In this document: positions 8,670 to 44,809 of the stretch, one piece after another
Layout of the letters: every line of letters starts with the position of its first letter
Position numbering within the stretch: position 1 is the first letter of the stretch
Source of the DNA: an uncultured Candidatus Saccharibacteria bacterium
GTDB lineage: Bacteria; Patescibacteriota; Minisyncoccia; Phycocordibacterales; Phycocordibacteraceae
Reading direction: 5' to 3'
Length of the DNA stretch: 64,000 bases
Assembly (NCBI GenBank): GCA_964607655.1
Contig: CAZSKX010000001.1
Coordinates: 363,010-427,009, forward strand
Notes under the pieces: model-generated
Told to the model about the DNA's origin: nothing
What the model saw: only the letters and a program-made list of their open reading frames with translations
The model's database searches: none
Translations under genes and position numbers: made by a program

Positions 8670-8744
8670 TGGAGGCCTGGGCGGGAATTGAACCCGCGCA
8701 TCGCGGTTTTGCAGACCGCTGTGTTACCACTTCACCACCAGGCC
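8670..8744 (-). tRNA. tRNA-Cys (GCA), CCA encoded
   Basis: Hand-folded cloverleaf: acceptor GGCCTGG/CCAGGCC, anticodon loop CTGCAAA, T-arm GCGGG-TTCAATT-CCCGC. Confidence 0.8.
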
Positions 8745-8786
8745 GTGCTTACAGAATAGCAGAGAAGCTGATATCATAAAAATCTT

Positions 8787-8875
8787 GTCGGGATGGCGGA
8801 ACTGGTAGACGCACAGGACTTAAAATCCTGGGAGGGCTTAAAAACCTCGTGTGGGTTCGACCCCCACTCCCGGCA
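8787..8875 (+). tRNA. tRNA-Leu (TAA), long variable arm
   Basis: Acceptor GTCGGGA/TCCCGGC, anticodon loop CTTAAAA, long variable arm and T-arm GTGGG-TTCGACC-CCCAC. Confidence 0.8.
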
Positions 8876-8970
8876 CAAAGCGGAGCTTTTTGAGTGAGGG
8901 GTCGAAGGCCGGAGCAGCTTGGCTGCGAGGCGGGGTCGCGCAAAATCTCAGCAGAGATTTATGTGTGACC

Positions 8971-8988
8971 GACCCCCACTCCCGGCAC
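8971..8988 (+). repeat. 18-bp direct repeat of the tRNA-Leu(TAA) 3' end (gacccccactcccggcac)
   Basis: Exact copy of 8859-8876, located 112 bp downstream. Confidence 0.85.
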
Positions 8989-9103
8989 TAATGCACGCAT
9001 GAGAGAAGGCACTTGGACAATACTTTTTAGTACTTGACAAATAGCCTACTTTGTAGTAGGCTACAATAAACTTCTGAACACCCAACACCCGTAAGGAGGG
9101 GTT

Positions 9104-9313
9104 ATGGATGCAGTGACTGCTCTTTTCAAGATGGCGTTGGTTCTCTGGGTCATGGCGATTGGCTTCGCGATGATCCTGCGTGGACCGACTGGCGCGCTGA
9201 CCACTTTCCAGTGGCCACTCGCCAGAGGATTCCGATTGGTTCGTCGGATGATCGGATCGCTCCTCGTGAGCATCGGTCAGGCGATTCATCCAGGACGCCG
9301 CCAGCGCCACTAA
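9104..9313 (+). CDS. Small membrane protein (69 aa)
   Basis: Strong SD AAGGAGG 4 nt upstream of the ATG and a hydrophobic helix; lies within the tRNA cluster. Confidence 0.45.
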   Translation: MDAVTALFKMALVLWVMAIGFAMILRGPTGALTTFQWPLARGFRLVRRMIGSLLVSIGQAIHPGRRQRH

Positions 9314-9407
9314 ACCAACCGTCCCCCCACCAGAAAGCCGTGGGAGGACGGTTTTCGATTTTACCAATACTAGACCTTGGCTCCGGCTCACACAAAGCTG
9401 TGCCTTG

Positions 9408-9489
9408 TGCTGGGAAGAGGACTCGAACCTCCATGGGTTGCCCCGCTAGCTCCTAAGGCTAGTGCGTCTACCAATTTCGCCATCCCAGC
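9408..9489 (-). tRNA. tRNA-Leu (TAG)
   Basis: Acceptor GCTGGGA/TCCCAGC, anticodon loop CTTAGGA, variable arm and T-arm GGAGG-TTCGAGT-CCTCT. Confidence 0.8.
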
Positions 9490-9528
9490 GTGTTTACACA
9501 ATACTATAGTTTGCTATATTTTCATTAA

Positions 9529-9601
9529 GCGCCTATAGCTCAGTTGGTAGAGCAGCTCCCTCTTAAGGAGACGGTCCCAGGTTCGAGCCCTGGTAGGCGC
9601 A
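9529..9601 (+). tRNA. tRNA-Lys (CTT)
   Basis: GCGCCTA...TAGGCGC acceptor stem, D-arm GCTCAGTTGGTAGAGC, anticodon loop CTCTTAA and T-arm CCAGG-TTCGAGC-CCTGG. Confidence 0.85.
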
Positions 9602-9686
9602 CAAAAGAACAGCGCTCGCGTGCAATTTTTTATATTTATGGCATAATCGCGCACAGACCCATCTGCGGGGAAAGGAGGACCTTGCC

Positions 9687-11831: not shown

Positions 11832-12129
11832 ATGGGGCGGGCAGATCTCCCTCGCAGGTGAGCAGTCCCCATGGCCCGGGCGTCTCACAGTTGAAAGTTC
11901 TCAGAGCAATATTGATGATCCCGAACGCGCCGAAGATTATCGTTAATCCGATCAATCCCCATAGCATGGAATCTTTACCAACCTTGCGCTTGGCCGGGTC
12001 TCCGGCACCTGCGATAAACTGAACAATTCCCCAGAGAAAAACCACAAACGCCCCTGCCGTAAGCAGGAGCATAAGCGGATTCACTATCTGAACAACAACG
12101 CGGTCGAGAAAGTTGAGCAGCGCTGACAT
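11830..12129 (-). CDS. TrbC/VirB2-like T4SS pilin-family small membrane protein (paralog 1)
   Basis: Two hydrophobic helices separated by a charged G-AGD-AKRK-GK loop and a C-terminal WGL-N motif shared with its five neighbours. Confidence 0.55.
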   Translation of the reverse strand: MSALLNFLDRVVVQIVNPLMLLLTAGAFVVFLWGIVQFIAGAGDPAKRKVGKDSMLWGLIGLTIIFGAFGIINIALRTFNCETPGPWGLLTCEGDLPAP

Positions 12130-12500
12130 TACCCACCGATCTGGACTCCTGCCGAAGGCGTACCCCCTGAAGGACCAGTGTTGTCACCGAAGTCGAAGGT
12201 GCCGACGAGGATGTTAACAAGACCCCAGATCGAGACCATGACGAAGAAGCCGATCAAGCTGTAAAGCATGAGACTCTTGCCCTTGTCCTTGGCGTCTTCT
12301 GAGCCGGCTCCAAGGATAAAAGTCGTAAAGGCGCCCCAAAGGAAGACGATAAAGGCAACCGCGAAGAGCACCGGAACGATAATATTATTTATCGTATCGA
12401 TGATAAATGTTCCGACATCACTGATGTCATTAAGAGCGGCGAAGGTGACCATCGGAAGGGTCAACGCAGCGAGAGTGCTAAGAGTTACGACTTTTTTCAT
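12129..12500 (-). CDS. TrbC/VirB2-like pilin-family protein (paralog 2)
   Basis: Signal peptide, then IIVPVLFAVAFIVFLWGAF...GAGSEDAKDKGKSLMLYSLIGFFVMVSIWGLVNIL. Confidence 0.6.
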   Translation of the reverse strand: MKKVVTLSTLAALTLPMVTFAALNDISDVGTFIIDTINNIIVPVLFAVAFIVFLWGAFTTFILGAGSEDAKDKGKSLMLYSLIGFFVMVSIWGLVNILVGTFDFGDNTGPSGGTPSAGVQIGG

Positions 12501-12596
12501 ACTTTGTATAAGTGGCTAATGGGTTAATTGTAGCTTGGCGAAACGTAAGGTCAATGCAGTTTGCGCGCCAGTGTGGATAGCTGGCTCGACAGTAGC

Positions 12597-12995
12597 CTAA
12601 AGAATTGGCCGAAGGGTTGGCGTTGGTATACCTGTATTATCTTGCTTATCTAAGTTAAGCGTCTCCTTGACGATAAACACGATGCCCCACACCGAGAGGA
12701 TGATGACGAATCCTATAATCCCATTCATGGCGAACTTCCTCCCCTCCGTGCGCGCCTTTTCATCGGCTGCACCTAAGATGAAGTATTTATAGATACCCCA
12801 GAGAAAGACGATGAGCGCCACCGCCATAAGCATGGGTACTAAATAAATGTTTATGAAGCCAATGAGATCATTGGCATAGTAACCGATGTACGTGAAGTCG
12901 AGACCGTCTGCTGTTCCTGCTGATGCCGCTGCCGCTGCAGGTAGGATGAGGTACCCTATTGCTCCCACTCCCGCTACTTTTGCTGATGTTGTCAT
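12597..12995 (-). CDS. TrbC/VirB2-like pilin-family protein (paralog 3)
   Basis: Same two-helix core (LVPMLMAVALIVFLWG...GAADEKARTEGRK...SVWGIVFIV). Confidence 0.55.
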   Translation of the reverse strand: MTTSAKVAGVGAIGYLILPAAAAASAGTADGLDFTYIGYYANDLIGFINIYLVPMLMAVALIVFLWGIYKYFILGAADEKARTEGRKFAMNGIIGFVIILSVWGIVFIVKETLNLDKQDNTGIPTPTLRPIL

Positions 12996-13005
12996 AAGAA
13001 GTGAA

Positions 13006-13467
13006 TTAATAAGTGTAAGAGGTTGGTAACGTTTGCAGAGTCGCGTTCTGCAGACCGAAGGTGTTCGCTACGATGTTTACGAGTCCCCAGAGCGAGATCA
13101 TGATGACGAAGCCAATAATCCCCCACAAGATAAGGCGATGACCCTTCCTGACCTCCCCCTCGTCCCCGAGGGAAAAGATATACGTCTTCGCGACACCATA
13201 CAAGAAGGTAATAAACGCCACCGCAAAGAGCAATGGGACAAGGATCGAGTTGATAAGGTAGAGAAGCGTAACGCCAATACGGCAAATCGTAAGCTGGCAA
13301 GAGGCTTGACCGCCCCCACCGCCCCCACCCTCGCCTCCAGCAACACAGAGGCCGTCTGCTCCTCCAATACACAGCCCCGCCCACCAGTCAGCAGCCAGGG
13401 TCCTCGTTGGTAGCAGTATCGCAACGCTCATGATGCTAAGCACGAGAATGAGAAGCGCAGTCCTCAT
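13006..13467 (-). CDS. TrbC/VirB2-like pilin-family protein (paralog 4) with Gly/Cys-rich insert
   Basis: Signal peptide MRTALLILVL..., then GLCIGGADGLCVAGGEGGGGGGGQASC, then the conserved pilin core. The start was chosen to avoid overlap with paralog 5. Confidence 0.5.
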   Translation of the reverse strand: MRTALLILVLSIMSVAILLPTRTLAADWWAGLCIGGADGLCVAGGEGGGGGGGQASCQLTICRIGVTLLYLINSILVPLLFAVAFITFLYGVAKTYIFSLGDEGEVRKGHRLILWGIIGFVIMISLWGLVNIVANTFGLQNATLQTLPTSYTY

Positions 13468-13508
13468 CCGACTTGATAGTGACATATGCATGAAGTATGA
13501 CATGAAGA

Positions 13509-13763
13509 TCAGCTCGGCAAGATCCCAAGCGTGGATAACATTATAAAGAGAATACCCCAAACACTAAACGCCACCGCAAAGCCCACCAAGCCCCAAAGTA
13601 CGAACTGCCGTGCCTCGGCAAGCTTGGAGGTATCGCTGCCGTATATAAAGAAATACTTCACTATGCCCAAAATGAAAGCCGCAAATGCGGCAGCGAATAT
13701 AAGGGGAACAATAATAGTATTAATCCCCTCGACGAGACTCTCGGCAAAAGTCTTGAACGTCAT
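13509..13763 (-). CDS. TrbC/VirB2-like pilin-family protein (paralog 5)
   Basis: 84 aa; IIVPLIFAAAFAAFILG...GSDTSKLAEARQ...SVWGILFIM. Confidence 0.55.
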   Translation of the reverse strand: MTFKTFAESLVEGINTIIVPLIFAAAFAAFILGIVKYFFIYGSDTSKLAEARQFVLWGLVGFAVAFSVWGILFIMLSTLGILPS

Positions 13764-13769
13764 ACCTAG

Positions 13770-14162
13770 CTAATTTCCCGAAAGGGCCTCTACCGTCGCC
13801 AAGATCCCGGTAGCTATCGCCTTAGAGCCAAGCACGATAAGCGCTCCGACAATGGTCCAGACAAACGCGTCACGAGCCTTACTGATCTCTCCAGGATTTC
13901 CTCGTGCCATAACAAAAAGATACCCGACATACACCATCATAAATGCGACGACCACCGATCCAACCGCCACCACGAAATCGAGGATCTGGACAAGAAACTC
14001 TGCAAGGCTGGAAGGCCCCCCATCAATACCTAGAGGGTTAAGCAGCCGCACTCCAATATCGTTCCCCAAGTTCCCGGGTGTATCATCCACCTCAGCGAAG
14101 ACCACCGATGTCCCTGATAAAAGGAGCATCGCAAAGATTAGCAAGGCAACAGTCTTTCTCAT
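13770..14162 (-). CDS. TrbC/VirB2-like pilin-family protein (paralog 6, most canonical)
   Basis: Signal peptide, then the two-helix pilin domain with ARGNPGEISKARD loop. Confidence 0.6.
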   Translation of the reverse strand: MRKTVALLIFAMLLLSGTSVVFAEVDDTPGNLGNDIGVRLLNPLGIDGGPSSLAEFLVQILDFVVAVGSVVVAFMMVYVGYLFVMARGNPGEISKARDAFVWTIVGALIVLGSKAIATGILATVEALSGN

Positions 14163-19281: not shown

Positions 19282-19923
19282 TTATGCTGTTATTACGATT
19301 ATACTCCCATCTCGACCAACAAGGTCCTTGCGCTTCAGGGTAAGCTTGTCACCCTTCTCGCTCTTACCGCCGCCCTCCTTAATAAAGGTCTCGAGTGACT
19401 TAGGCGCGCCCATGCCCTCCCAGTGCATCGGGATGATGATCTTCGGCTCGAGCGAGACCGCGAGCTCGTGAGCCTTCGCGGGCGTGAGAACTCCATCACC
19501 CCCCACAGGGACAAAGAGCACGTCGATCTCGTCGATATTCTCGCGTGCCTCGCGCGGGAGCTCGCCGTCAGAGAGCGCGCCGAGATGCACGAGGGTCATA
19601 TCCTCAAGCTGAACACTATAAATAGTATTAACGGCCTTCTCCTCGCCCTTACCGAGACCGTACTTACTCTCAGAGAGAAACCCTTGGACCGTCACCCCTT
19701 GGCGCTCGTACTCTCCGGGGCCAGTGATCGCGAAGGGTACCGTATCGCCGTAGGTCACTTCCTCGACGCCGTTCATGTCCGGATGATTACGTGAGACGAG
19801 CGCGATATCCGCACCAAAGCGTACCGACGGAAGGGTCGCTTTCTTACTTATTGGATCGAAGGCGATCGTCAGATCGCCGAGGGTCACCTTAAAGCACTGC
19901 CCGCCGTGGTGCGTGATAACCAT
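19282..19923 (-). CDS. Metallo-beta-lactamase-fold metal-dependent hydrolase (UPF0173-like)
   Basis: ITHHGGQCF (HxHxDH-like) near the N-terminus and conserved D/H residues later; start taken at the internal ATG (MVITHHG). Confidence 0.6.
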   Translation of the reverse strand: MVITHHGGQCFKVTLGDLTIAFDPISKKATLPSVRFGADIALVSRNHPDMNGVEEVTYGDTVPFAITGPGEYERQGVTVQGFLSESKYGLGKGEEKAVNTIYSVQLEDMTLVHLGALSDGELPREARENIDEIDVLFVPVGGDGVLTPAKAHELAVSLEPKIIIPMHWEGMGAPKSLETFIKEGGGKSEKGDKLTLKRKDLVGRDGSIIVITA

Positions 19924-19994
19924 TGCTAATATTCTAACACAAAACTCATCGTATTTCAGCTTCATTCGGCCTCAGGTCCCCGCGTCGCCATAAC

Positions 19995-20023
19995 TTGACA
20001 ATACGATTGTATGCATGTACAGT
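19995..20023 (+). promoter_or_regulatory. Sigma70-like promoter TTGACA-17-TACAGT
   Basis: Exact -35 hexamer, 17-nt spacer and a -10-like hexamer 58 nt upstream of the first cassette ORF. Confidence 0.5.
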
Positions 20024-20081
20024 CCAACGTGGAAGAGCCCCGCAAAAACTTATGCGAACCAAGGCTCGAAAGGAGATCTAA

Positions 20082-20369
20082 ATGAAAGCCAACGTGTATA
20101 ATGAGGTCGATCATCATGACAGTCTCGGTGATGAGGGCTGGATCCGTATTCAAAAGATCTGTTTTGACAAACGGGTTCACATCATTCGCAGTTGGGCAAG
20201 CACAGAAGAGAAGCCCCACTTCCATGAGCGCTGGTTGACCAGCGGCCCTTGCGACGGATCGTGCGTTCGAGAGCTCGACATCCCGCATGGGTTCGAGCCT
20301 GTCATCGAAAGTTTCCTGGCCACCGGCGCCAACGAATCCGAGCCCTACCAACTGACACCGGAGAACTGA
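20082..20369 (+). CDS. Small cysteine-containing protein, 'SGPCD' family paralog A (95 aa)
   Basis: SD AAAGGAG upstream; shares a W-SGPCD-SC...P-G-E motif with the ORF at 21843. Confidence 0.5.
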   Translation: MKANVYNEVDHHDSLGDEGWIRIQKICFDKRVHIIRSWASTEEKPHFHERWLTSGPCDGSCVRELDIPHGFEPVIESFLATGANESEPYQLTPEN

Positions 20370-20451
20370 GCGACCCACACCGATCACGAGCTGCCCACGG
20401 GCTCGTGGTCCCGGCAGCTGGGCTGTTCGTGAGTTCAAGAAGGAGACTCTA

Positions 20452-20688
20452 ATGCCCCTCAACATCGCGTTCATCAGCGCACACGGCGGCAAGCCAGCCG
20501 CAGTCGTCACCCACGAAGAATCGTCCGATGCCGTGCAGGCTGACCTCGACTCGGCTGGCGGCGACAACGAGAAGGTCGTCTCGTTCATCCAAGTAGAGGG
20601 TGTGACTGCCGACCTGCTCTCGGCTCTCATGGGTACCGATCTCATGACGGACCTGGAGGCATTCCTCACACAGGTGCACAACGCCTGA
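20452..20688 (+). CDS. Small acidic hypothetical protein (78 aa)
   Basis: SD AAGGAG upstream; followed by terminator repeat T-B. Confidence 0.45.
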   Translation: MPLNIAFISAHGGKPAAVVTHEESSDAVQADLDSAGGDNEKVVSFIQVEGVTADLLSALMGTDLMTDLEAFLTQVHNA

Positions 20689-20699
20689 ACCCCCACGCC

Positions 20700-20752
20700 G
20701 ACCACGAGCTGCCCTCCGAGCTCGTGGTCACGGCGGCGGGGGTTTTTTGTTT
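20700..20752 (+). terminator. Terminator-repeat family copy (gaccacgagc...gctcgtggtc + acggcggcggggg + T-tract)
   Basis: 10-bp stem plus a T-tract; related copies at 20382-20410 (no T-tract) and 21325-21374. Confidence 0.65.
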
Positions 20753-20880
20753 ACCGCCAAAATAATTCGACGAGGAGCTTGACAAATTACTCAGCAAGCG
20801 CATGCTGCACTCTCTGGTGAGGCAGTCCGCCCCACCCCAACCGGTCCCTAAGCGAGCCCGACCCCAGGAGGTAAATCGCG

Positions 20881-21309
20881 ATGCTCAAAAAGCACACTTT
20901 GTTCTTTTCATCCGCAACGCGCAACCAGATCGAAAGCGATCCGCGCTTACTGCTGCGCCCTGGATTCGTGAAGGCAATGGAGTTGCCCGGCGCAATTCTC
21001 CGACAAGCGAAGGTGAGTTCCGTGCACGTGACGGGAGATGCGTGGTCGGAGTTTCGCCTCGGCGCTTCCGAGGCCCTACTCACCATCTCTGCAATGCTCC
21101 TCGCGCCTCGTGTGGAGAGCACCATCGAGCTGGCCAGCCCTCACGGGTTACTCGCCAACACCGCCCAGGTGGACATCGAGTTCTTCAGGAGGGGCCAGGC
21201 CGGAGCCAGCTTCGTCCTCTCGTTCAACATCGACCTCGACTCTGCGGAGATGCGGCACGTCGCATACCGAAAGCCGGGCGGACCGGGGACGATGGTCTTC
21301 GCCGCCTGA
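20881..21309 (+). CDS. Hypothetical protein (142 aa)
   Basis: SD AGGAGG upstream; followed by terminator repeat T-C. Confidence 0.45.
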   Translation: MLKKHTLFFSSATRNQIESDPRLLLRPGFVKAMELPGAILRQAKVSSVHVTGDAWSEFRLGASEALLTISAMLLAPRVESTIELASPHGLLANTAQVDIEFFRRGQAGASFVLSFNIDLDSAEMRHVAYRKPGGPGTMVFAA

Positions 21310-21324
21310 CAACACTCCCCTCGT

Positions 21325-21374
21325 GACCACGAACCTTCCCGGTTCGTGGTCACGGCGGCGGGGTGTTTTTGTTT
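21325..21374 (+). terminator. Terminator-repeat family copy
   Basis: Perfect 11-bp stem gaccacgaacc/ggttcgtggtc + acggcggcggggtg + T-tract. Confidence 0.65.
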
Positions 21375-21443
21375 ATATGAACTCCCCAGCGTATAGTAAG
21401 TCTAGATCGATCTAGTCCTTCACTGTCATCCGAGGAGGTCCTT

Positions 21444-21686
21444 ATGCGGGGGAAACATGCGCTCCATGAACGACTGCAGACCGCGGGCATTGCCTATGCG
21501 GCGCTCGGGCTGGGTGTCAGCTTCTACACAATCAGCCACTTCGTCCAGCTACACCGGAACGGGCCGATCATTCACCAGGCCGATGTGGCCCTCGCGCATT
21601 CGCTCGTGTTCACCACGGTCCTACTCCTTGGCGCTGCAGCTTGTGCCATCTCTGGTGCATTACTTCTTAAACGGTTTAGTCCGTAG
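21444..21686 (+). CDS. Small membrane protein (80 aa, 2 TM)
   Basis: SD GAGGAGG upstream; a TATAGT -10-like hexamer at 21394; followed by hairpin 21706-21741. Confidence 0.45.
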   Translation: MRGKHALHERLQTAGIAYAALGLGVSFYTISHFVQLHRNGPIIHQADVALAHSLVFTTVLLLGAAACAISGALLLKRFSP

Positions 21687-21705
21687 ACAGGATTCCAGTC
21701 CTTAA

Positions 21706-21741
21706 GGGCGGCGCTCGAAAGAACGCCGCCCTTTTCCTTTT
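21706..21741 (+). terminator. Terminator hairpin (gggcggcg-ctcgaaagaa-cgccgccc + T-tract), repeat copy 1
   Basis: Near-identical copy at 22160-22195. Confidence 0.65.
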
Positions 21742-21752
21742 CCCGCTTGATA

Positions 21753-21781
21753 TTGACAACTATTATCAAACGGCGTATAGT
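21753..21781 (+). promoter_or_regulatory. Sigma70-like promoter TTGACA-17-TATAGT
   Basis: Consensus -35, 17-nt spacer and a near-consensus -10, followed by the shared 5'UTR motif. Confidence 0.55.
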
Positions 21782-21842
21782 ACCAAGCAGAAGAGCCCCG
21801 CAAAAACTTATGCGGACCTGGCTTACGGACGGGAGAAACCGA

Positions 21843-22139
21843 ATGAACGGAAGAGTCTATCTCACCGAACAACCGGAGAGCGGCCACACCAGCATCACAC
21901 GAACCATGACGCACGTGTGCGTCGACCAGCTGGTGCACCTGTACTGCGTTCGTGACGTGAGCCAGGGCGTCGAGACTGCCACATGGAACGTGTCCGGCCC
22001 CTGCGATACGCGATCCTGCGAAAACGCCTGGGCCGTACTGCCTCGAGGGGCAGAGTTCATCGCAACGGAGTTCATCAACACCCAAGGCCGGGACTGCCAC
22101 AAGGTCACGAGCACGCGGCAACTGCCTGCTAAGTCCTGA
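21843..22139 (+). CDS. Small cysteine-containing protein, 'SGPCD' family paralog B (98 aa)
   Basis: Paralog of 20082..20369; start at the internal ATG behind the GGGAGAAA SD; terminator copy 2 follows at 22160-22195. Confidence 0.5.
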   Translation: MNGRVYLTEQPESGHTSITRTMTHVCVDQLVHLYCVRDVSQGVETATWNVSGPCDTRSCENAWAVLPRGAEFIATEFINTQGRDCHKVTSTRQLPAKS

Positions 22140-22305
22140 CCTTCAACCAGGTTCACAAAGGGCGGCGTTCGAAAGAACGCCGCCCTTTTCCTTTTCATAC
22201 ATATTTGCTATAGTTGACCCGTTGCGTGCGGGCATTAGTTGAGGAATAACCCTCCCAAGCGAAAGCGACGGACACCCTCGGCGAATCCAGCACTGCTTTT
22301 ATAGA

Positions 22306-23430
22306 ATGTCTGAAGAGACTCAAGTTGCTGCTAAGGCAGCGCCGATAGTAACGATCCATGTCGCCGACGACCACCCGATGAGGGGGCTCGTTGACGGTAT
22401 CGCTACTCCACCAGGTAACGGCGACATCGTCGAAGGCGCGATCATCGCGATCAGTCGCGGTCGCGTCTACGTCGACCTACCGCCGTTTGGTACGGGTATT
22501 ATTTACGGCCGCGAATACCTAAATGCTGCCGACGTGCTGCGTAAGGCTAATCAGGGCGACATCATCACAGCTAAGGTGATCGACCCTGCTGGCCGCGACG
22601 GCTATATCGAGCTCTCGCTTAAGGAGGCTCGTCAGGCTGCCATCTGGGGCGAGGCCGAGAAGGCGATCCTCACTCAGGCGGTCTACACTCTCGAGGTCGA
22701 AGAGGCCAACAAGGGCGGTCTTATCCTCACCTGGCAGGGTATCCAGGGCTTCCTCCCTGCCTCTCAGCTCTCTAAGGAGCACTATCCTCGCGTGCCTGAA
22801 GGCGACAAGGAGAAGATCCTTGGTGAGCTTATGCGCCTCGTCGGTAAGCCGCTCTCAGTCCGCATCATCACTGCTGACGCGAAGGAAGGTAAACTTATCT
22901 TCTCTGAGCGCACGGAAGGTGAGGCTGAAGAGAAGGCGTCACTCATCGACAAGTACGTGGTCGGTGACACGGTTGAGGGCGAGATCACGGGCATCGTCGA
23001 CTTCGGCGTGTTCGTTAAGCTCGAGCAGGGTCTCGAGGGTCTCGTGCACATCAGCGAGATCGACTGGGGCCTCGTCGAAGATCCTCATGCCCTCTACAAG
23101 GTCGGCGACCGGGTGAAGGTAAAGGTGATCGAGATCAAGGAGGGCAAGATTTCTCTCTCGATCAAGTCGCTCAAGGAGAATCCTTGGAAGACCGCTGGCG
23201 AACGCTACAAGAAGGAGATGGAGGTGCCGGGCGTTATCATCAAGTACAACAAGCACGGTGCGCTCGCCTCGATCGAGGAGGGTGTCGCGGGCTTGGTGCA
23301 CGTAAGCGAGTTCACCTCGCCAGCACAGCTGCGCGAAACGCTCGAGCTCGGTAAGACCTATCCGTTCTCGATCACACTCTTCGATCCGAAGGAGCAGCGC
23401 ATGACGCTGACCTATAAGGGTAAGAAATAA
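22306..23430 (+). CDS. rpsA: 30S ribosomal protein S1 (four S1 domains)
   Basis: Repeated S1 OB-fold signatures (GxV...G-FV-L; HISE-; HVSE-) across 374 aa. Confidence 0.8.
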   Translation: MSEETQVAAKAAPIVTIHVADDHPMRGLVDGIATPPGNGDIVEGAIIAISRGRVYVDLPPFGTGIIYGREYLNAADVLRKANQGDIITAKVIDPAGRDGYIELSLKEARQAAIWGEAEKAILTQAVYTLEVEEANKGGLILTWQGIQGFLPASQLSKEHYPRVPEGDKEKILGELMRLVGKPLSVRIITADAKEGKLIFSERTEGEAEEKASLIDKYVVGDTVEGEITGIVDFGVFVKLEQGLEGLVHISEIDWGLVEDPHALYKVGDRVKVKVIEIKEGKISLSIKSLKENPWKTAGERYKKEMEVPGVIIKYNKHGALASIEEGVAGLVHVSEFTSPAQLRETLELGKTYPFSITLFDPKEQRMTLTYKGKK

Positions 23431-41858: not shown

Positions 41859-42488
41859 TTAGGCAAAAAGTGGCTTCTCATCGACAATCTTATCCTTGAT
41901 CAGCTCGTAGTATTGGTAGTCGTTGTGCTCGTATTTCCTGAAAATTGCCCACGAAATAAAGTCGACCGCTTGAAGTGACTTGTTCTCGTGCGAAGCGTGT
42001 AACTCTACTTTGAATACACCGTCTCGGCGATTACTCATTTCTGTACATAAATACGTTACAAAATTTTCCTTCAGCCGCTTCTTGGTGTCCTTCCGGTCGA
42101 TGTAGAGTTCGATCGATTCCTGTACACTCAACGCATCACTCTTATGGAGCCGGTCTAAGAGGATGTTCGCGGTGTAATTATAGAGCACGTTCTTTTGACT
42201 CTGTAGATTCGTATAGACCTTTTCCTTGTTCAAGACAATCGTTTGCACCTTGAGATCCGGGATCTCACTCAACTTCTGTAATAATCTCTTGCGTGTTATC
42301 TCGTCAGCCCCGTACGCATGCAGCTCCCCCAAGCGCTTATGCTTCTTCTTTAGCGTGCGCCAGACCTTCTTGACAGCCCGCTCAAGCGCACGCTCGTCGG
42401 CGACGATAGCAATGGTAAAGAGAAACCATTTGCTCGATCCTTTCTTAAACCCCAAATCCCCGCTCTCATCAAGAAAGACGTAGGCCAT
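41859..42488 (-). CDS. DUF3800-family protein
   Basis: N-terminal MAYVFLDESGD, the hallmark of DUF3800; the ATG overlaps the upstream stop (TAAtATG). Confidence 0.6.
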   Translation of the reverse strand: MAYVFLDESGDLGFKKGSSKWFLFTIAIVADERALERAVKKVWRTLKKKHKRLGELHAYGADEITRKRLLQKLSEIPDLKVQTIVLNKEKVYTNLQSQKNVLYNYTANILLDRLHKSDALSVQESIELYIDRKDTKKRLKENFVTYLCTEMSNRRDGVFKVELHASHENKSLQAVDFISWAIFRKYEHNDYQYYELIKDKIVDEKPLFA

Positions 42489-42489
42489 A

Positions 42490-43653
42490 TTACCGATTCC
42501 CCTTCGCTCGGTTGTGTGTTTTGCAGAGCATTTGACAGTTTGCCGCATCGGTCGCTCCCCCCTTACTCCAAGCAGCCACGTGATCGGCATCCATATCGGA
42601 CAAACTCCAGATCTTCTCCTTGTTGGCGTCATGCCCAATGGCGCACAAGGGACAATTTGATTCACTTTTTTCTTTCGCCGCTGCGGTCTGAGCCTCATAA
42701 ACTGAGCGTTTAGTCGCATCGTCAAACACGCGCACGTCCAACAACTTCGTGTCCACTTCGCCTCCTAATACATACTCGAAGATCCCTCGTCGGTTCTTGA
42801 CGTGCGCGTCTCCATAAAGACGCTGCACCGCGGCAGAAATTACCGCGGGATCGTAAGTTTGCGCATGGTACGTCTTGTACAAACGATTCCATTCCAGCCC
42901 CTTCATTTCGCTTTCGACATCAATGAAAATTGACGACACCCAATCAATGACTTTGTTGAAGTGATTTTTCAACTCAGTGATATCCGAATCCTGACGGTGC
43001 TTACTCATGTAGTTATCGATTGCCCCATCAGACACCCAGTCAAGCGCATGCTCCAGAAAAGCTTGGCGCTTGATATCACCAGAGACGTAGGCACTCCACT
43101 TCTGCACATTCGCATTTTGGCTATTACTAAACTCCTCACGCGCACGAGTCACAAAAGGCCCGGAGTAGACCGCGTTCAAAATCTCCTGCTCGGTTAGCGG
43201 CACACCCGCAATGTTGATCGTCTTGAACCAATCCTTGATCTCTGGCTCTTCGCCCTCGCATATGTAGATGAGCAACTTCGTATTCAAGATCTTCTCGCGC
43301 TGCACATCGGCCATCCCGCTATAGTATTGTTCGTGACCATTCTGGTCCCTTACCGCAAACAAACCGGTCACAAATCGACCAATACTAGTGATACGCTGCT
43401 GACCGTCGAGGACTTCAAACTTTTCGTTGCCCACCTGATTGAAATACATCACTCCGATTGGATAACCTTTCACAATGGAGTCGATTACTGCCACGTCACG
43501 CCTTCCGTCCGCGTATATGTAATTACGTTGGTACTCAGGCTGGATAGTAAGCGTACCTGATAGACCAAACAGACCCTTGCCTTCAAATGCATTGTATTCA
43601 AAACCGGCGACAACGTCGCGAATGGTGATGTCAGTTTTTAGTGCAGTTTTCAT
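42490..43653 (-). CDS. ParB-like/DUF262 nuclease-domain protein with C-terminal HNH endonuclease domain (GmrSD-like architecture)
   Basis: VLDGQQR (DUF262 signature) N-terminally; CPLC...DADHV...N...CKTHN (HNH) C-terminally; translationally coupled to both neighbours. Confidence 0.7.
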
Positions 43654-43654
43654 A

Positions 43655-44809
43655 TTATTTCTTCTTGTGCTTTATAAAAATTCTCTTGAAGGCCATTTTT
43701 GCAATGCCATTGTCGTAATAGCCTGCAGTTGGGTTGCCTTCCTTATACGCCCCCGTTCCACCTGCTTTATAGTAATCATCGACGAACTTCTTTGTTAGCC
43801 CTGGTGTCCGTTTGAACTCATCACCAACAAGTCCGTTATCGTTTGTGCCCAGGATCTCAAACTGTTCCGGTGAATACTTGTCTAGGAAGCTAATCGGCAC
43901 ACCCATTGCCCCATCGTAATCACTCGGTATGGCATCTGTAAATGGCACCTCGATTGCGTCGTAATTGTCATATTTATCGTAATCGGCCTTGTCTTTCATC
44001 TTTTTGTTAAATCTAAAATTGTCAGAATATGTCATAAGACTAAGCGGTCGGTGACGGCGACCATGATCAAGATTGGTAAACCAGCATGTGTTACCCATTT
44101 TCTGTTCGGACTTATCTGGTCTCACATATGTTTTTGCACCACTCACAACCCCCAACCACACCTTGTTCATCTTTATCAAAGGAAAAATTTCTTTATAAGT
44201 TATGGCATTCATGCTGCCAAGTATCAGAAATTGTTTGTTGTGCTCCATGAGCTGGGCCACATAAGGCCGAAACAGGCTAAATGGAGGATTGGTGACTACA
44301 ATGTCGGACTCTTTAAGCAGCTCGACGCATTCAGGACTTCGAAAGTCGCCATCGCCCTCTAGCGGCGACCACTCGTTATTTTTATTTTCCTTCAATTGCT
44401 GCGAAATATCTTTCAGCGTGAAGGAGCCATCCCCGTCCACATCGCCAACTTCGTTAATGATAAATTTGTTGGCCGTAATCTTCGGTCGGCCTTTGACAGG
44501 CTCGAGTGTCACATCGTCGCCAAATAGCCCGAGCTGAGTATTCGCAACAGGCGAGGGCTTGTAGCTCGTGGTAATAAGCCGCTTTAGACCGAGGCGTTTG
44601 AAATTAAGCACGAAGTAGCGGAAGAAGTTACTCTCGAACGGATCGTCGCAATTGCAGTAGACAATCTTATCCTTAAAAGTGTCGCGGTCGTACTCCAGAT
44701 AGGCCTCAATCTCTTTTTGAATATCGCTGTACTGCGTATAGAACTCGTCATTCTTTGCCTTTTTGGCATTTGTGAGATTGCTGTTCGCCATTACGCCAAA
44801 TAATCCCAC
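43655..44809 (-). CDS. EcoRI-family N6-adenine DNA methyltransferase
   Basis: N-terminal NDEFYTQ...VYCNCDDPF and the catalytic TNPPF (motif IV of m6A MTases); GTG start (an ATG alternative is at 44791). Confidence 0.65.

Follow-up and report, generated by a model that had tools for sequence, protein, structure and literature searches.

Chromosomal hotspots, in which accessory genes integrate between conserved core genes, are a general concept of comparative genomics, and the hairpin in the 5' untranslated region (UTR) of Escherichia coli ompA is an example of a 5'-terminal stem-loop that stabilises mRNA. Integron cassette arrays and promoter-coupled terminators (Fletcher et al., bioRxiv 2026, doi 10.64898/2026.08.19.745784) provide further points of comparison for the locus described here, which lies in a window of 64,000 nucleotides (nt), the whole stretch of DNA that was analysed (assembly GCA_964607655.1, contig CAZSKX010000001.1, positions 363,010 to 427,009). 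The locus is an islet of 2.4 kb with five small plus-strand genes, located inside the divergent spacer between the genes for a metallo-beta-lactamase (MBL)-fold hydrolase and ribosomal protein S1 (rpsA). It is likely to represent a strain-variable islet of small accessory genes in an MBL/rpsA hotspot of a Kaiserbacteria-like genome from the Candidate Phyla Radiation (CPR). Like other hotspots, it occupies a fixed slot between syntenic core genes, and its content ranges from nothing to several unrelated genes. Unlike them, it carries a cargo of tiny open reading frames (ORFs; 78-142 amino acids (aa)) with no integrase, tRNA or compositional anomaly, and its modules share copied promoter/leader and terminator sequences that coincide with the junctions of insertions and deletions (indels).

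The evidence for a hotspot comes from comparison with related genomes. The order gyrA, a 113-aa gene, MBL, rpsA (divergent from MBL) and pth is kept in about 45 species-representative genomes, and the MBL-rpsA spacer measures 84-1,703 nt in relatives versus approximately 2,380 nt in the window. The shortest spacers hold just two divergent promoters, and longer ones contain one to a few small ORFs, hardly ever related to those of other species. Thus, with the same flanking core genes and a spacer of variable size and content, the site has the properties of an accessory-gene hotspot. Three close relatives (L001, L002 and L003) were found through the 90% cluster of ORF5, the last gene of the islet (Table 1). 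Between MBL and rpsA, L002 possesses a single module consisting of promoter/leader, ORF5 and terminator, and both L001 and L003 possess two: first an unrelated 83-aa ORF that has a promoter of its own and a type-A terminator, then the ORF5 module. A more distant species (L020) has one module with a homolog of ORF2. A comparison of cassette number had been proposed in an earlier note on this DNA; at this very site, the number of modules among the related genomes is 0, 1, 2 or 5, depending on the lineage.

A further observation concerns other occupants of the same slot. A single ORF of about 100 aa, whose N-terminus looks hydrophobic and signal-peptide-like by eye, is present in L010 (7459-7794), L014 (876-1187), L022 (6802-7116) and L015 (7191-7496), and these ORFs are mutually unrelated.

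Table 1. Features of the islet and its flanks, in window positions; promoters, leader copies and hairpins are predictions
Feature	Position	Strand	Description
MBL-fold hydrolase gene (left flank)	19282..19923	-	Pfam Lactamase_B_3, 7e-28; synteny kept in about 45 genomes
Promoter P1	19995-20023	+	TTGACA-17-TACAGT; 10/12 consensus match
Leader copy 1	20032-20056	+	Exact 25-mer; starts at about +1 of the P1 transcript; predicted 5' stem-loop
ORF1	20082-20369	+	95 aa, acidic, pI 5.1; divergent member of the CHCC family
Hairpin A' (stem 20382-20410)	20374..20422	+	Between ORF1 and ORF2; degenerate copy of A1, starts GATCAC not GACCAC, without T-run
ORF2	20452-20688	+	78 aa, pI 4.1; one homolog (L020, same chromosomal site, 59% identity)
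Hairpin A1 and U-tract	20689-20753	+	After ORF2; -40.8 kcal/mol, z = -5.6, followed by UUUUUUGUUU
Possible weak ORF3 promoter	20779..20807	+	TTGACA-16-CATGCT; by eye, below the threshold of the consensus scan
ORF3	20881-21309	+	142 aa, basic, orphan
Hairpin A2 and U-tract	21312-21375	+	After ORF3; -42.8 kcal/mol, z = -7.1
Probable ORF4 promoter	21369..21397	+	TTGTTT-17-TATAGT; -35 box overlaps the A2 U-tract
ORF4	21444-21686	+	80 aa, basic, orphan; two hydrophobic segments resembling transmembrane (TM) segments (read by eye)
Hairpin B1 and U-rich tail	21704-21742	+	After ORF4; -26.3 kcal/mol, z = -4.6; abuts the P2 -35 box
Promoter P2	21753-21781	+	TTGACA-17-TATAGT; 11/12 consensus match; orthologous to the ORF5 promoter of L001/L003
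Leader copy 2	21790-21814	+	Exact 25-mer; predicted 5' stem-loop
ORF5	21843-22139	+	98 aa, CHCC family; in close relatives, the conserved anchor of the locus
Hairpin B2 and U-rich tail	22157-22196	+	Just upstream of the rpsA promoter; -28.4 kcal/mol, z = -6.7
rpsA extended -10 promoter and 5' UTR (right flank)	22206..22305	+	Promoter TGCTATAGT; 5' UTR conserved and structured
rpsA (right flank)	22306..23430	+	Ribosomal protein S1, four S1 domains; Pfam S1, 7e-41

All five ORFs are called as proteins in the NCBI assembly, and each is preceded at 6-10 nt by a Shine-Dalgarno (SD) box (AGGAG, AGGAGG or GGGAGA). The coding pattern of low GC content at second codon positions (GC2) and high GC content at third positions (GC3) is present in 5/5 of them, the annotated frame ranks first or close to first among the six (first for ORF3, with a GC3 of 0.77), and overlapping alternative ORFs score below the annotated frames. 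The ratios of nonsynonymous to synonymous divergence (dN/dS) indicate that purifying selection acts on ORF5 (0.25-0.40) and ORF2 (0.26). These data bear on the possibility that the region is largely non-coding and structured, or consists of small RNA genes, several of the ORFs (especially ORF3 and ORF4) being chance frames of a GC-rich genome. Such an explanation could draw on the lack of homologs of ORF3 and ORF4, on codon-usage scores near zero for ORF1, ORF4 and ORF5, and on the long alternative ORFs that occur on both strands. However, besides the codon composition and the dN/dS values of about 0.3, ORF5 and ORF1 belong to a family whose invariant residues hold at about 25% identity, all five SD boxes are properly spaced, four of the ORFs are followed by a strong terminator, and an Rfam scan of the whole window at the gathering threshold gave tRNAs only. 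A largely non-coding region is thus very improbable.

Two of the five products, ORF3 and ORF4, are orphans. Single-sequence searches with ORF1 and ORF3 among 5.8 billion proteins returned the self-match alone. The 90% cluster of ORF4 contains only ORF4 itself, and no relative was present in the fetched related DNA, the large protein databases not having been searched for it. The L020 homolog is the sole relative of ORF2 among the sequences fetched, and a scan of metagenome contigs with ORF2 apparently re-found only the L020 contig (46,896 nt) with the same 59% identity. No relationship links ORF2, ORF3 and ORF4 with one another or with ORF1 and ORF5. Scans of all five proteins against Pfam, PHROGs, PADLOC and NCBIfam yielded no significant match, in agreement with the initial impression that none of them has an obvious family; the best matches (BTG 0.054, NsnC 0.013 and TrsD 0.0014) are noise far below the cut-offs. 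The AlphaFold2 (AF2) model of ORF3 from its single sequence was uninformative (pLDDT 30).

Exactly two plus-strand promoters, P1 and P2, were detected at the locus by a consensus scan, and both would be of the sigma-70 type, with TTGACA and TATAAT-like hexamers 17 nt apart. In L002 and L020, the -35 and -10 boxes of P1 are kept and its spacer is not. Each promoter is followed by the same 25-nt leader, GAAGAGCCCCGCAAAAACTTATGCG, which is identical at both copies. These two promoters, the leader that follows both of them, and the five ORFs with strong SD boxes had all been described in the earlier note, and they were recovered as described. The note had also spoken of self-contained expression modules; a strong promoter of its own is present for two of the five ORFs only.

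No further copy of the leader was found in the window with up to three mismatches (0 expected by chance). The similarity extends to a promoter/leader repeat of 44 nt at 84% identity. Between the ORF1 and ORF5 modules the leader is 25/25 identical, and the coding DNA of the two paralogs is 43% identical. In the relatives, the leader is kept at 25/25 positions in L001 and L003 and at 24/25 in L002, despite an unrelated adjacent promoter spacer in the latter; the probability of such conservation under neutral divergence is about 1e-5 to 1e-9. The predicted fold is a two-tier stem-loop in both copies (-10.2 kcal/mol, z = -1.6, for copy 1 and -16.9 kcal/mol, z = -2.9, for copy 2). Because the leader begins about 8 nt past the -10 box, both mRNAs probably start with it, and it may serve as a 5' mRNA stabiliser or a common regulatory site; it could equally be an operator. 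A position at the inferred +1 and a predicted stem-loop within a few nt of the 5' end are features shared with stabilisers of the ompA type, whereas the leader has no sequence relation to them, belongs to no Rfam family and has only modest z-scores. The leader pattern had 0 matches in IMG/VR and 0 in the JGI metagenome contigs; the latter is a weak negative, since the sample from which L002 derives is absent from that collection.

Three copies of a hairpin A and two of a hairpin B had been noted previously. The two B copies (97% identical) were confirmed, and so were A1 and A2, both of which end with CACGGCGGCGGGG plus a T-run; A', the first of the three A copies, is present in degenerate form. 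A1, A2, B1 and B2 fold strongly into GC-rich stem-loops, each followed by a U-rich run, and thus look like canonical intrinsic terminators, which gives a strong predicted terminator after 4/5 ORFs. Hairpin A' lacks a U-tract and is therefore probably no terminator, so that ORF1 and ORF2 are likely co-transcribed. The position of the terminator upstream of the rpsA promoter is kept in L001, L002 and L020, whichever ORF precedes it. In an alignment of five sequences of terminator B, 3/11 stem pairs show double (compensatory) changes, which occur in L002 and L020, and 94% of the cells are paired, versus 42-63% with the partner slid. Outside the locus, no copy of hairpin A or B occurs in the window, and none of the leader or hairpin repeats was found in approximately 1.02 Mb of related loci. 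Generic genome-wide repeats of the REP type, combined with unconserved ORFs, had been named as the outcome that would undo the initial proposal, and the available sequence (the window and the related loci) did not show this combination. An Rfam search at an E-value threshold, covering the locus and L081, L083, L077, L001 and L020, left the leader, the hairpins and the L081 repeat (see below) unmatched.

The islet resembles the promoter-coupled terminators in that a U-tract lies 0-10 nt from, or overlaps, the next promoter at three places (A2 and the ORF4 promoter, B1 and P2, and B2 and the rpsA extended -10 promoter). It would differ in that its coupled elements are themselves duplicated between modules, and they are predicted from sequence. 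Under the preferred reading, the array would comprise three or four autonomous transcription units: P1, leader, ORF1, A' (read through), ORF2 and terminator A1; the weak promoter, ORF3 and terminator A2; the promoter overlapping the A2 U-tract, ORF4 and terminator B1; and P2, leader, ORF5 and terminator B2. The repeats would act as working transcription signals, namely sigma-70-type promoters, 5'-terminal stem-loop leaders and Rho-independent terminators, which would have been copied or recombined between modules. As these repeats are the sole homology between otherwise unrelated modules, they would also be the sites of module insertion, deletion and exchange.

The junctions between the window and its close relatives are consistent with such exchange. 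L002 aligns to window positions 19409-20060 and 21775-22342, and the two alignments overlap in the -10/leader segment. What L002 lacks relative to the window is thus exactly the 1,758 nt that separate one copy of the 44-nt promoter/leader repeat from the other. The promoter spacer and upstream sequence of L002 resemble P1, and its sequence after the leader resembles P2, a pattern that is what would be produced by deletion, or by Campbell-type insertion, through the leader repeat. A second indel is the additional 464 nt of L001 that hold the module of the 83-aa ORF; this segment is bounded by a 10-nt direct repeat, TTCTAGCACA (L001 77-86 and 551-560), of which the window has a single counterpart that aligns to both L001 copies. 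Hairpin A2 is a mosaic: its 5' arm is of the L001 hairpin type (CCCCTCGTGACCAC), and from the 3' arm through the tail it has the sequence of A1. Moreover, B1 is fused directly to the upstream edge of P2 and there takes the place of the MBL-proximal sequence found ahead of the orthologous promoter in L001. The ends of the indels in repeats and the mosaic structure of A2 suggest that modules have been exchanged by recombination at the repeats. As a single instance, the TTCTAGCACA repeat in L001 also resembles a target-site duplication.

The proposal in the earlier note that the locus grew by duplication of modules holds in part. The promoter/leader and the terminators are duplicated and specific to the locus, and the paralogy of ORF1 and ORF5 was borne out (BLASTP E = 9e-5, 32% identity; 1e-29 for each against one family profile, which no other ORF of the window fits), the two being true but old paralogs. 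It does not extend to ORF2, ORF3 and ORF4; being unrelated, they point to an array assembled from different genes that reuse shared signals, which fits independent acquisition.

Recent movement of one module is suggested by the divergence at synonymous sites (dS). Between the window and L001 or L002, dS is 0.13 for ORF5, 0.71 for S1 and 0.66 for MBL, and the difference between ORF5 and the flanking core genes has Fisher p values of 1e-7 and 2e-6; the ORF5 module is thus five-fold less diverged at synonymous sites than its core neighbours. The identity profile shows a block of 92-100% from the leader through B2 and falls to 58-75% at the start of rpsA. A recent transfer of the ORF5 module between lineages, rather than constraint on its synonymous sites, would be the favoured explanation.

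The same junctions and hairpins could be read as an integron-like or other site-specific cassette system, in which the hairpin with its GTGACCAC...GTGGTCAC core would be an attC-like site for a dedicated recombinase. As in integron cassette arrays, tandem and unrelated small ORFs occur in variable number, and an imperfect-palindrome hairpin from a single family follows each of them; consecutive ORFs end in hairpins that are conserved at the base and variable at the tip, as does the 83-aa cassette of L001. The A2 mosaic fits a crossover within the hairpin, cassette number differs among relatives, and 10-nt direct repeats bound the L001 insertion. On the other hand, IntI, attI and a single Pc promoter are lacking, no integrase, transposase or recombinase and no Phage_integrase domain was found among the neighbours between 14 and 29 kb of the window, which are core genes or lack a Pfam match, and the hairpin sequences contain no GTTRRRY/RYYYAAC attC core. 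They carry U-tracts and fold as canonical intrinsic terminators, some modules differ from integron cassettes in having their own promoters, the end of the largest indel lies in the leader rather than in a hairpin, and hairpin A is absent elsewhere in about 1 Mb of related DNA. An integron-like system is therefore improbable.

ORF1 and ORF5 belong to a rare and previously unannotated protein family, designated CHCC, which is absent from Pfam and NCBIfam. A first profile built from ORF5, its close relatives and ORF1 was used in an exhaustive search of 1.84 billion representatives and returned 12 further proteins, giving a tally of 14 representatives among these 1.84 billion proteins; a second search by profile, in 5.8 billion proteins, retrieved 27 clusters. 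Only one member is named, a hypothetical protein of a Patescibacteria metagenome-assembled genome (MAG), and the rest are almost all metagenomic. Members are about 90-130 aa long and mostly acidic, with a median pI of 5.0. In an alignment of 32 sequences, C26, H32, P53, C54, D55 and C59 are invariant and K30, V31, S58 and F77 near-invariant; the invariant residues hold at about 25% identity, and both ORF1 and ORF5 carry all of them. The family motifs are C-V-D-x-K-V-H (also C-[VI]-x-x-K-V-H), G-P-C-D-G-S-C and L-P-x-x-A-E-x-L-V-x-x-F-L, and the invariant set corresponds to Cys-x5-His ... Cys-x4-Cys.

An AF2 model from the family alignment (pLDDT 83, pTM 0.73) contains five beta-strands and one helix, and its secondary-structure map places the Cys/His/Cys residues at the same edge of the adjacent strands b2, b3 and b4. 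Given the conserved residues and the predicted strand topology, the CHCC set probably binds a metal (Zn). A Pfam scan of the 32 members gave no match, a PDB sequence search with the family profile had 0 matches at E <= 10, and Foldseek on PDB and BFVD found nothing at E <= 0.001. Levivirus coat proteins (Foldseek E about 0.3, TM-score about 0.3) were not counted as evidence, and the acidity of the family opposes RNA binding. No literature specific to the family or to this locus was found.

Other CHCC members, on metagenomic contigs L077-L083, also sit in same-strand arrays of small unannotated ORFs. The source assembly of L081 is a named and unrelated Patescibacteria MAG (GCA_041643075.1, JBGGHH010001047.1), in which positions 1226-2946 hold a four-ORF same-strand array with two diverged CHCC paralogs. 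A structured repeat of about 146 nt occurs there in four copies (64-88% identity), one after each ORF; each copy contains three hairpins, one of which shows a compensatory C-G to U-A change, and the repeat has no U-tract and no Rfam match. L083 shows three copies of analogous repeats (61-104 nt) between its genes. The L081 array is comparable to the islet in its diverged CHCC paralogs, same-strand small ORFs, structured repeats and near-identical 5' leaders of the paralogs. In contrast, the repeats of L081 and L083 are unrelated to those of the window, and the L081 array, with its repeats free of U-tracts, appears to be one operon. No leader motif is common to the different CHCC lineages, the leaders of which are unrelated in sequence, and no partner gene is conserved across the CHCC loci.

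With regard to function, small secreted effectors, toxin/immunity proteins and phage-derived accessory genes had all been suggested. The first of these finds no support, as no signal peptide was seen by eye in any of the five proteins (0/5), and ORF4 has two TM-like segments; neither do the others, as the family scans gave no toxin, immunity, defence or phage match. The acidity and the lack of signal peptides (by eye) suggest cytoplasmic proteins that would bind proteins rather than nucleic acid, and the products may, with low confidence, be regarded as cytoplasmic protein-binding factors. A type II toxin-antitoxin pair was also considered and rejected: there was no Pfam, PADLOC or NCBIfam match, in L020 ORF2 is found without ORF1, and L002 carries ORF5 by itself.

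The nature of the products and the variability of the slot could also be explained by an array of immunity, antitoxin or anti-defence inhibitor genes, similar to poly-immunity or orphan-immunity islands. Small and mostly acidic products without visible signal peptides, content that is hypervariable between strains and species, same-strand small-ORF arrays around other CHCC members and the signs of recent exchange in the ORF5 module would all be expected of such an array. However, neither the five proteins (PADLOC, Pfam, NCBIfam and PHROGs) nor the 32 family members (Pfam) match a known family, no toxin gene adjoins, the loci have no conserved partner gene, and ORF1 and ORF2 are not co-conserved (ORF2 being alone in L020 and ORF5 in L002). 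We consider an inhibitor array unlikely. A bolder combination of these ideas is about as doubtful, namely that the modules are self-contained, horizontally exchanged CPR expression cassettes which recombine at their own leader and terminator hairpins without a linked recombinase, and that the acidic CHCC metal-binding proteins they carry form a new class of protein inhibitors (for immunity, anti-defence or host interaction), with expression tied to the leader, a combination of protein and leader that L081 shows independently.

A remnant of a phage or mobile element, in the form of moron-like accessory genes left after integration, would account for the layout of promoter, small ORF and terminator and for genes that are orphan or rare. 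Nevertheless, the DNA matched none of 50,697 phage and 72,556 plasmid records, the five proteins and the leader were not found in IMG/VR, and there was no significant PHROG match and no structural match in BFVD. In GC content the islet matches the chromosome around it, core genes flank it on both sides, and no att-like tRNA or integrase is present, which makes such an origin highly unlikely.

For the hotspot islet itself, which remains the likely explanation, several points weigh on the other side. All that is said of promoters, the transcription start, terminators and operon structure is predicted from consensus matches and folding. The coding status of ORF3 and ORF4 is based on composition, strong SD boxes and flanking signals, with no homologs. 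The close relatives are short contigs (1.1-2.3 kb) from three samples only, and the search for repeat copies spanned the approximately 1.02 Mb of related loci and the 64 kb of the window, which belongs to a contig of at least 464 kb. The low dS of ORF5 could also reflect selection on synonymous sites (for example, on mRNA structure), and the metal-binding reading of the CHCC set is derived from conserved residues and predicted strand topology.

The genomes of CPR/Patescibacteria are small and packed with unannotated small ORFs, and strain-specific gene gain and shuffling in them are poorly understood. The islet offers a concrete and testable picture of these processes, with a fixed slot beside rpsA, 0-5 modules, and indels that end in duplicated signals. 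In addition, it has drawn attention to a protein family with a confident fold model and no structural relative, which recurs elsewhere in small-ORF arrays punctuated by repeats. The value of the islet is descriptive and hypothesis-generating, and all that has been seen so far fits familiar kinds of genome dynamics.

S1 shares 90% identity with its counterpart in the closest MAG and 80-86% with those of Candidatus Kaiserbacteria, Paceibacterota and Parcubacteria MAGs, which identifies the source organism, on these identities, as a Kaiserbacteria-like member of the Patescibacteria. The wider neighbourhood includes gyrA, peptidyl-tRNA hydrolase (pth), a signal peptidase, an aminoacyl-tRNA synthetase (aaRS)-like gene and ftsA. 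The true start of the MBL hydrolase is likely Met15 of a long ORF ending at 19965; the L002 orthologue begins MVITHHGG. The rpsA 5' UTR (22206-22305) is kept across Kaiserbacteria-like genomes, in which a 16-locus alignment shows TGCTATAGT as the extended -10 promoter, together with the motifs GTTGCGTGC and TAACCCT. In the stem predicted by RNAalifold, 11/12 pairs show compensatory changes; there is no Rfam match, and this 5' UTR may be an undescribed S1 autoregulatory leader in CPR.

Several other features of the window lie apart from the islet. On the minus strand, a low-GC segment at positions 41859-44809 (GC 0.47-0.49) encodes a DUF3800 protein, a GmrSD_N+HNH endonuclease-like protein and an EcoRI-type adenine methyltransferase, and it was probably acquired horizontally as a restriction/defence islet. 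Within another region of lowered GC content (about 0.50), positions 12129-14162 of the minus strand encode three small paralogs with a T4SS-pilin domain (PF18895), and four clustered tRNA genes (Cys, Leu-taa, Leu-tag and Lys) occur on alternating strands at 8670-9602.

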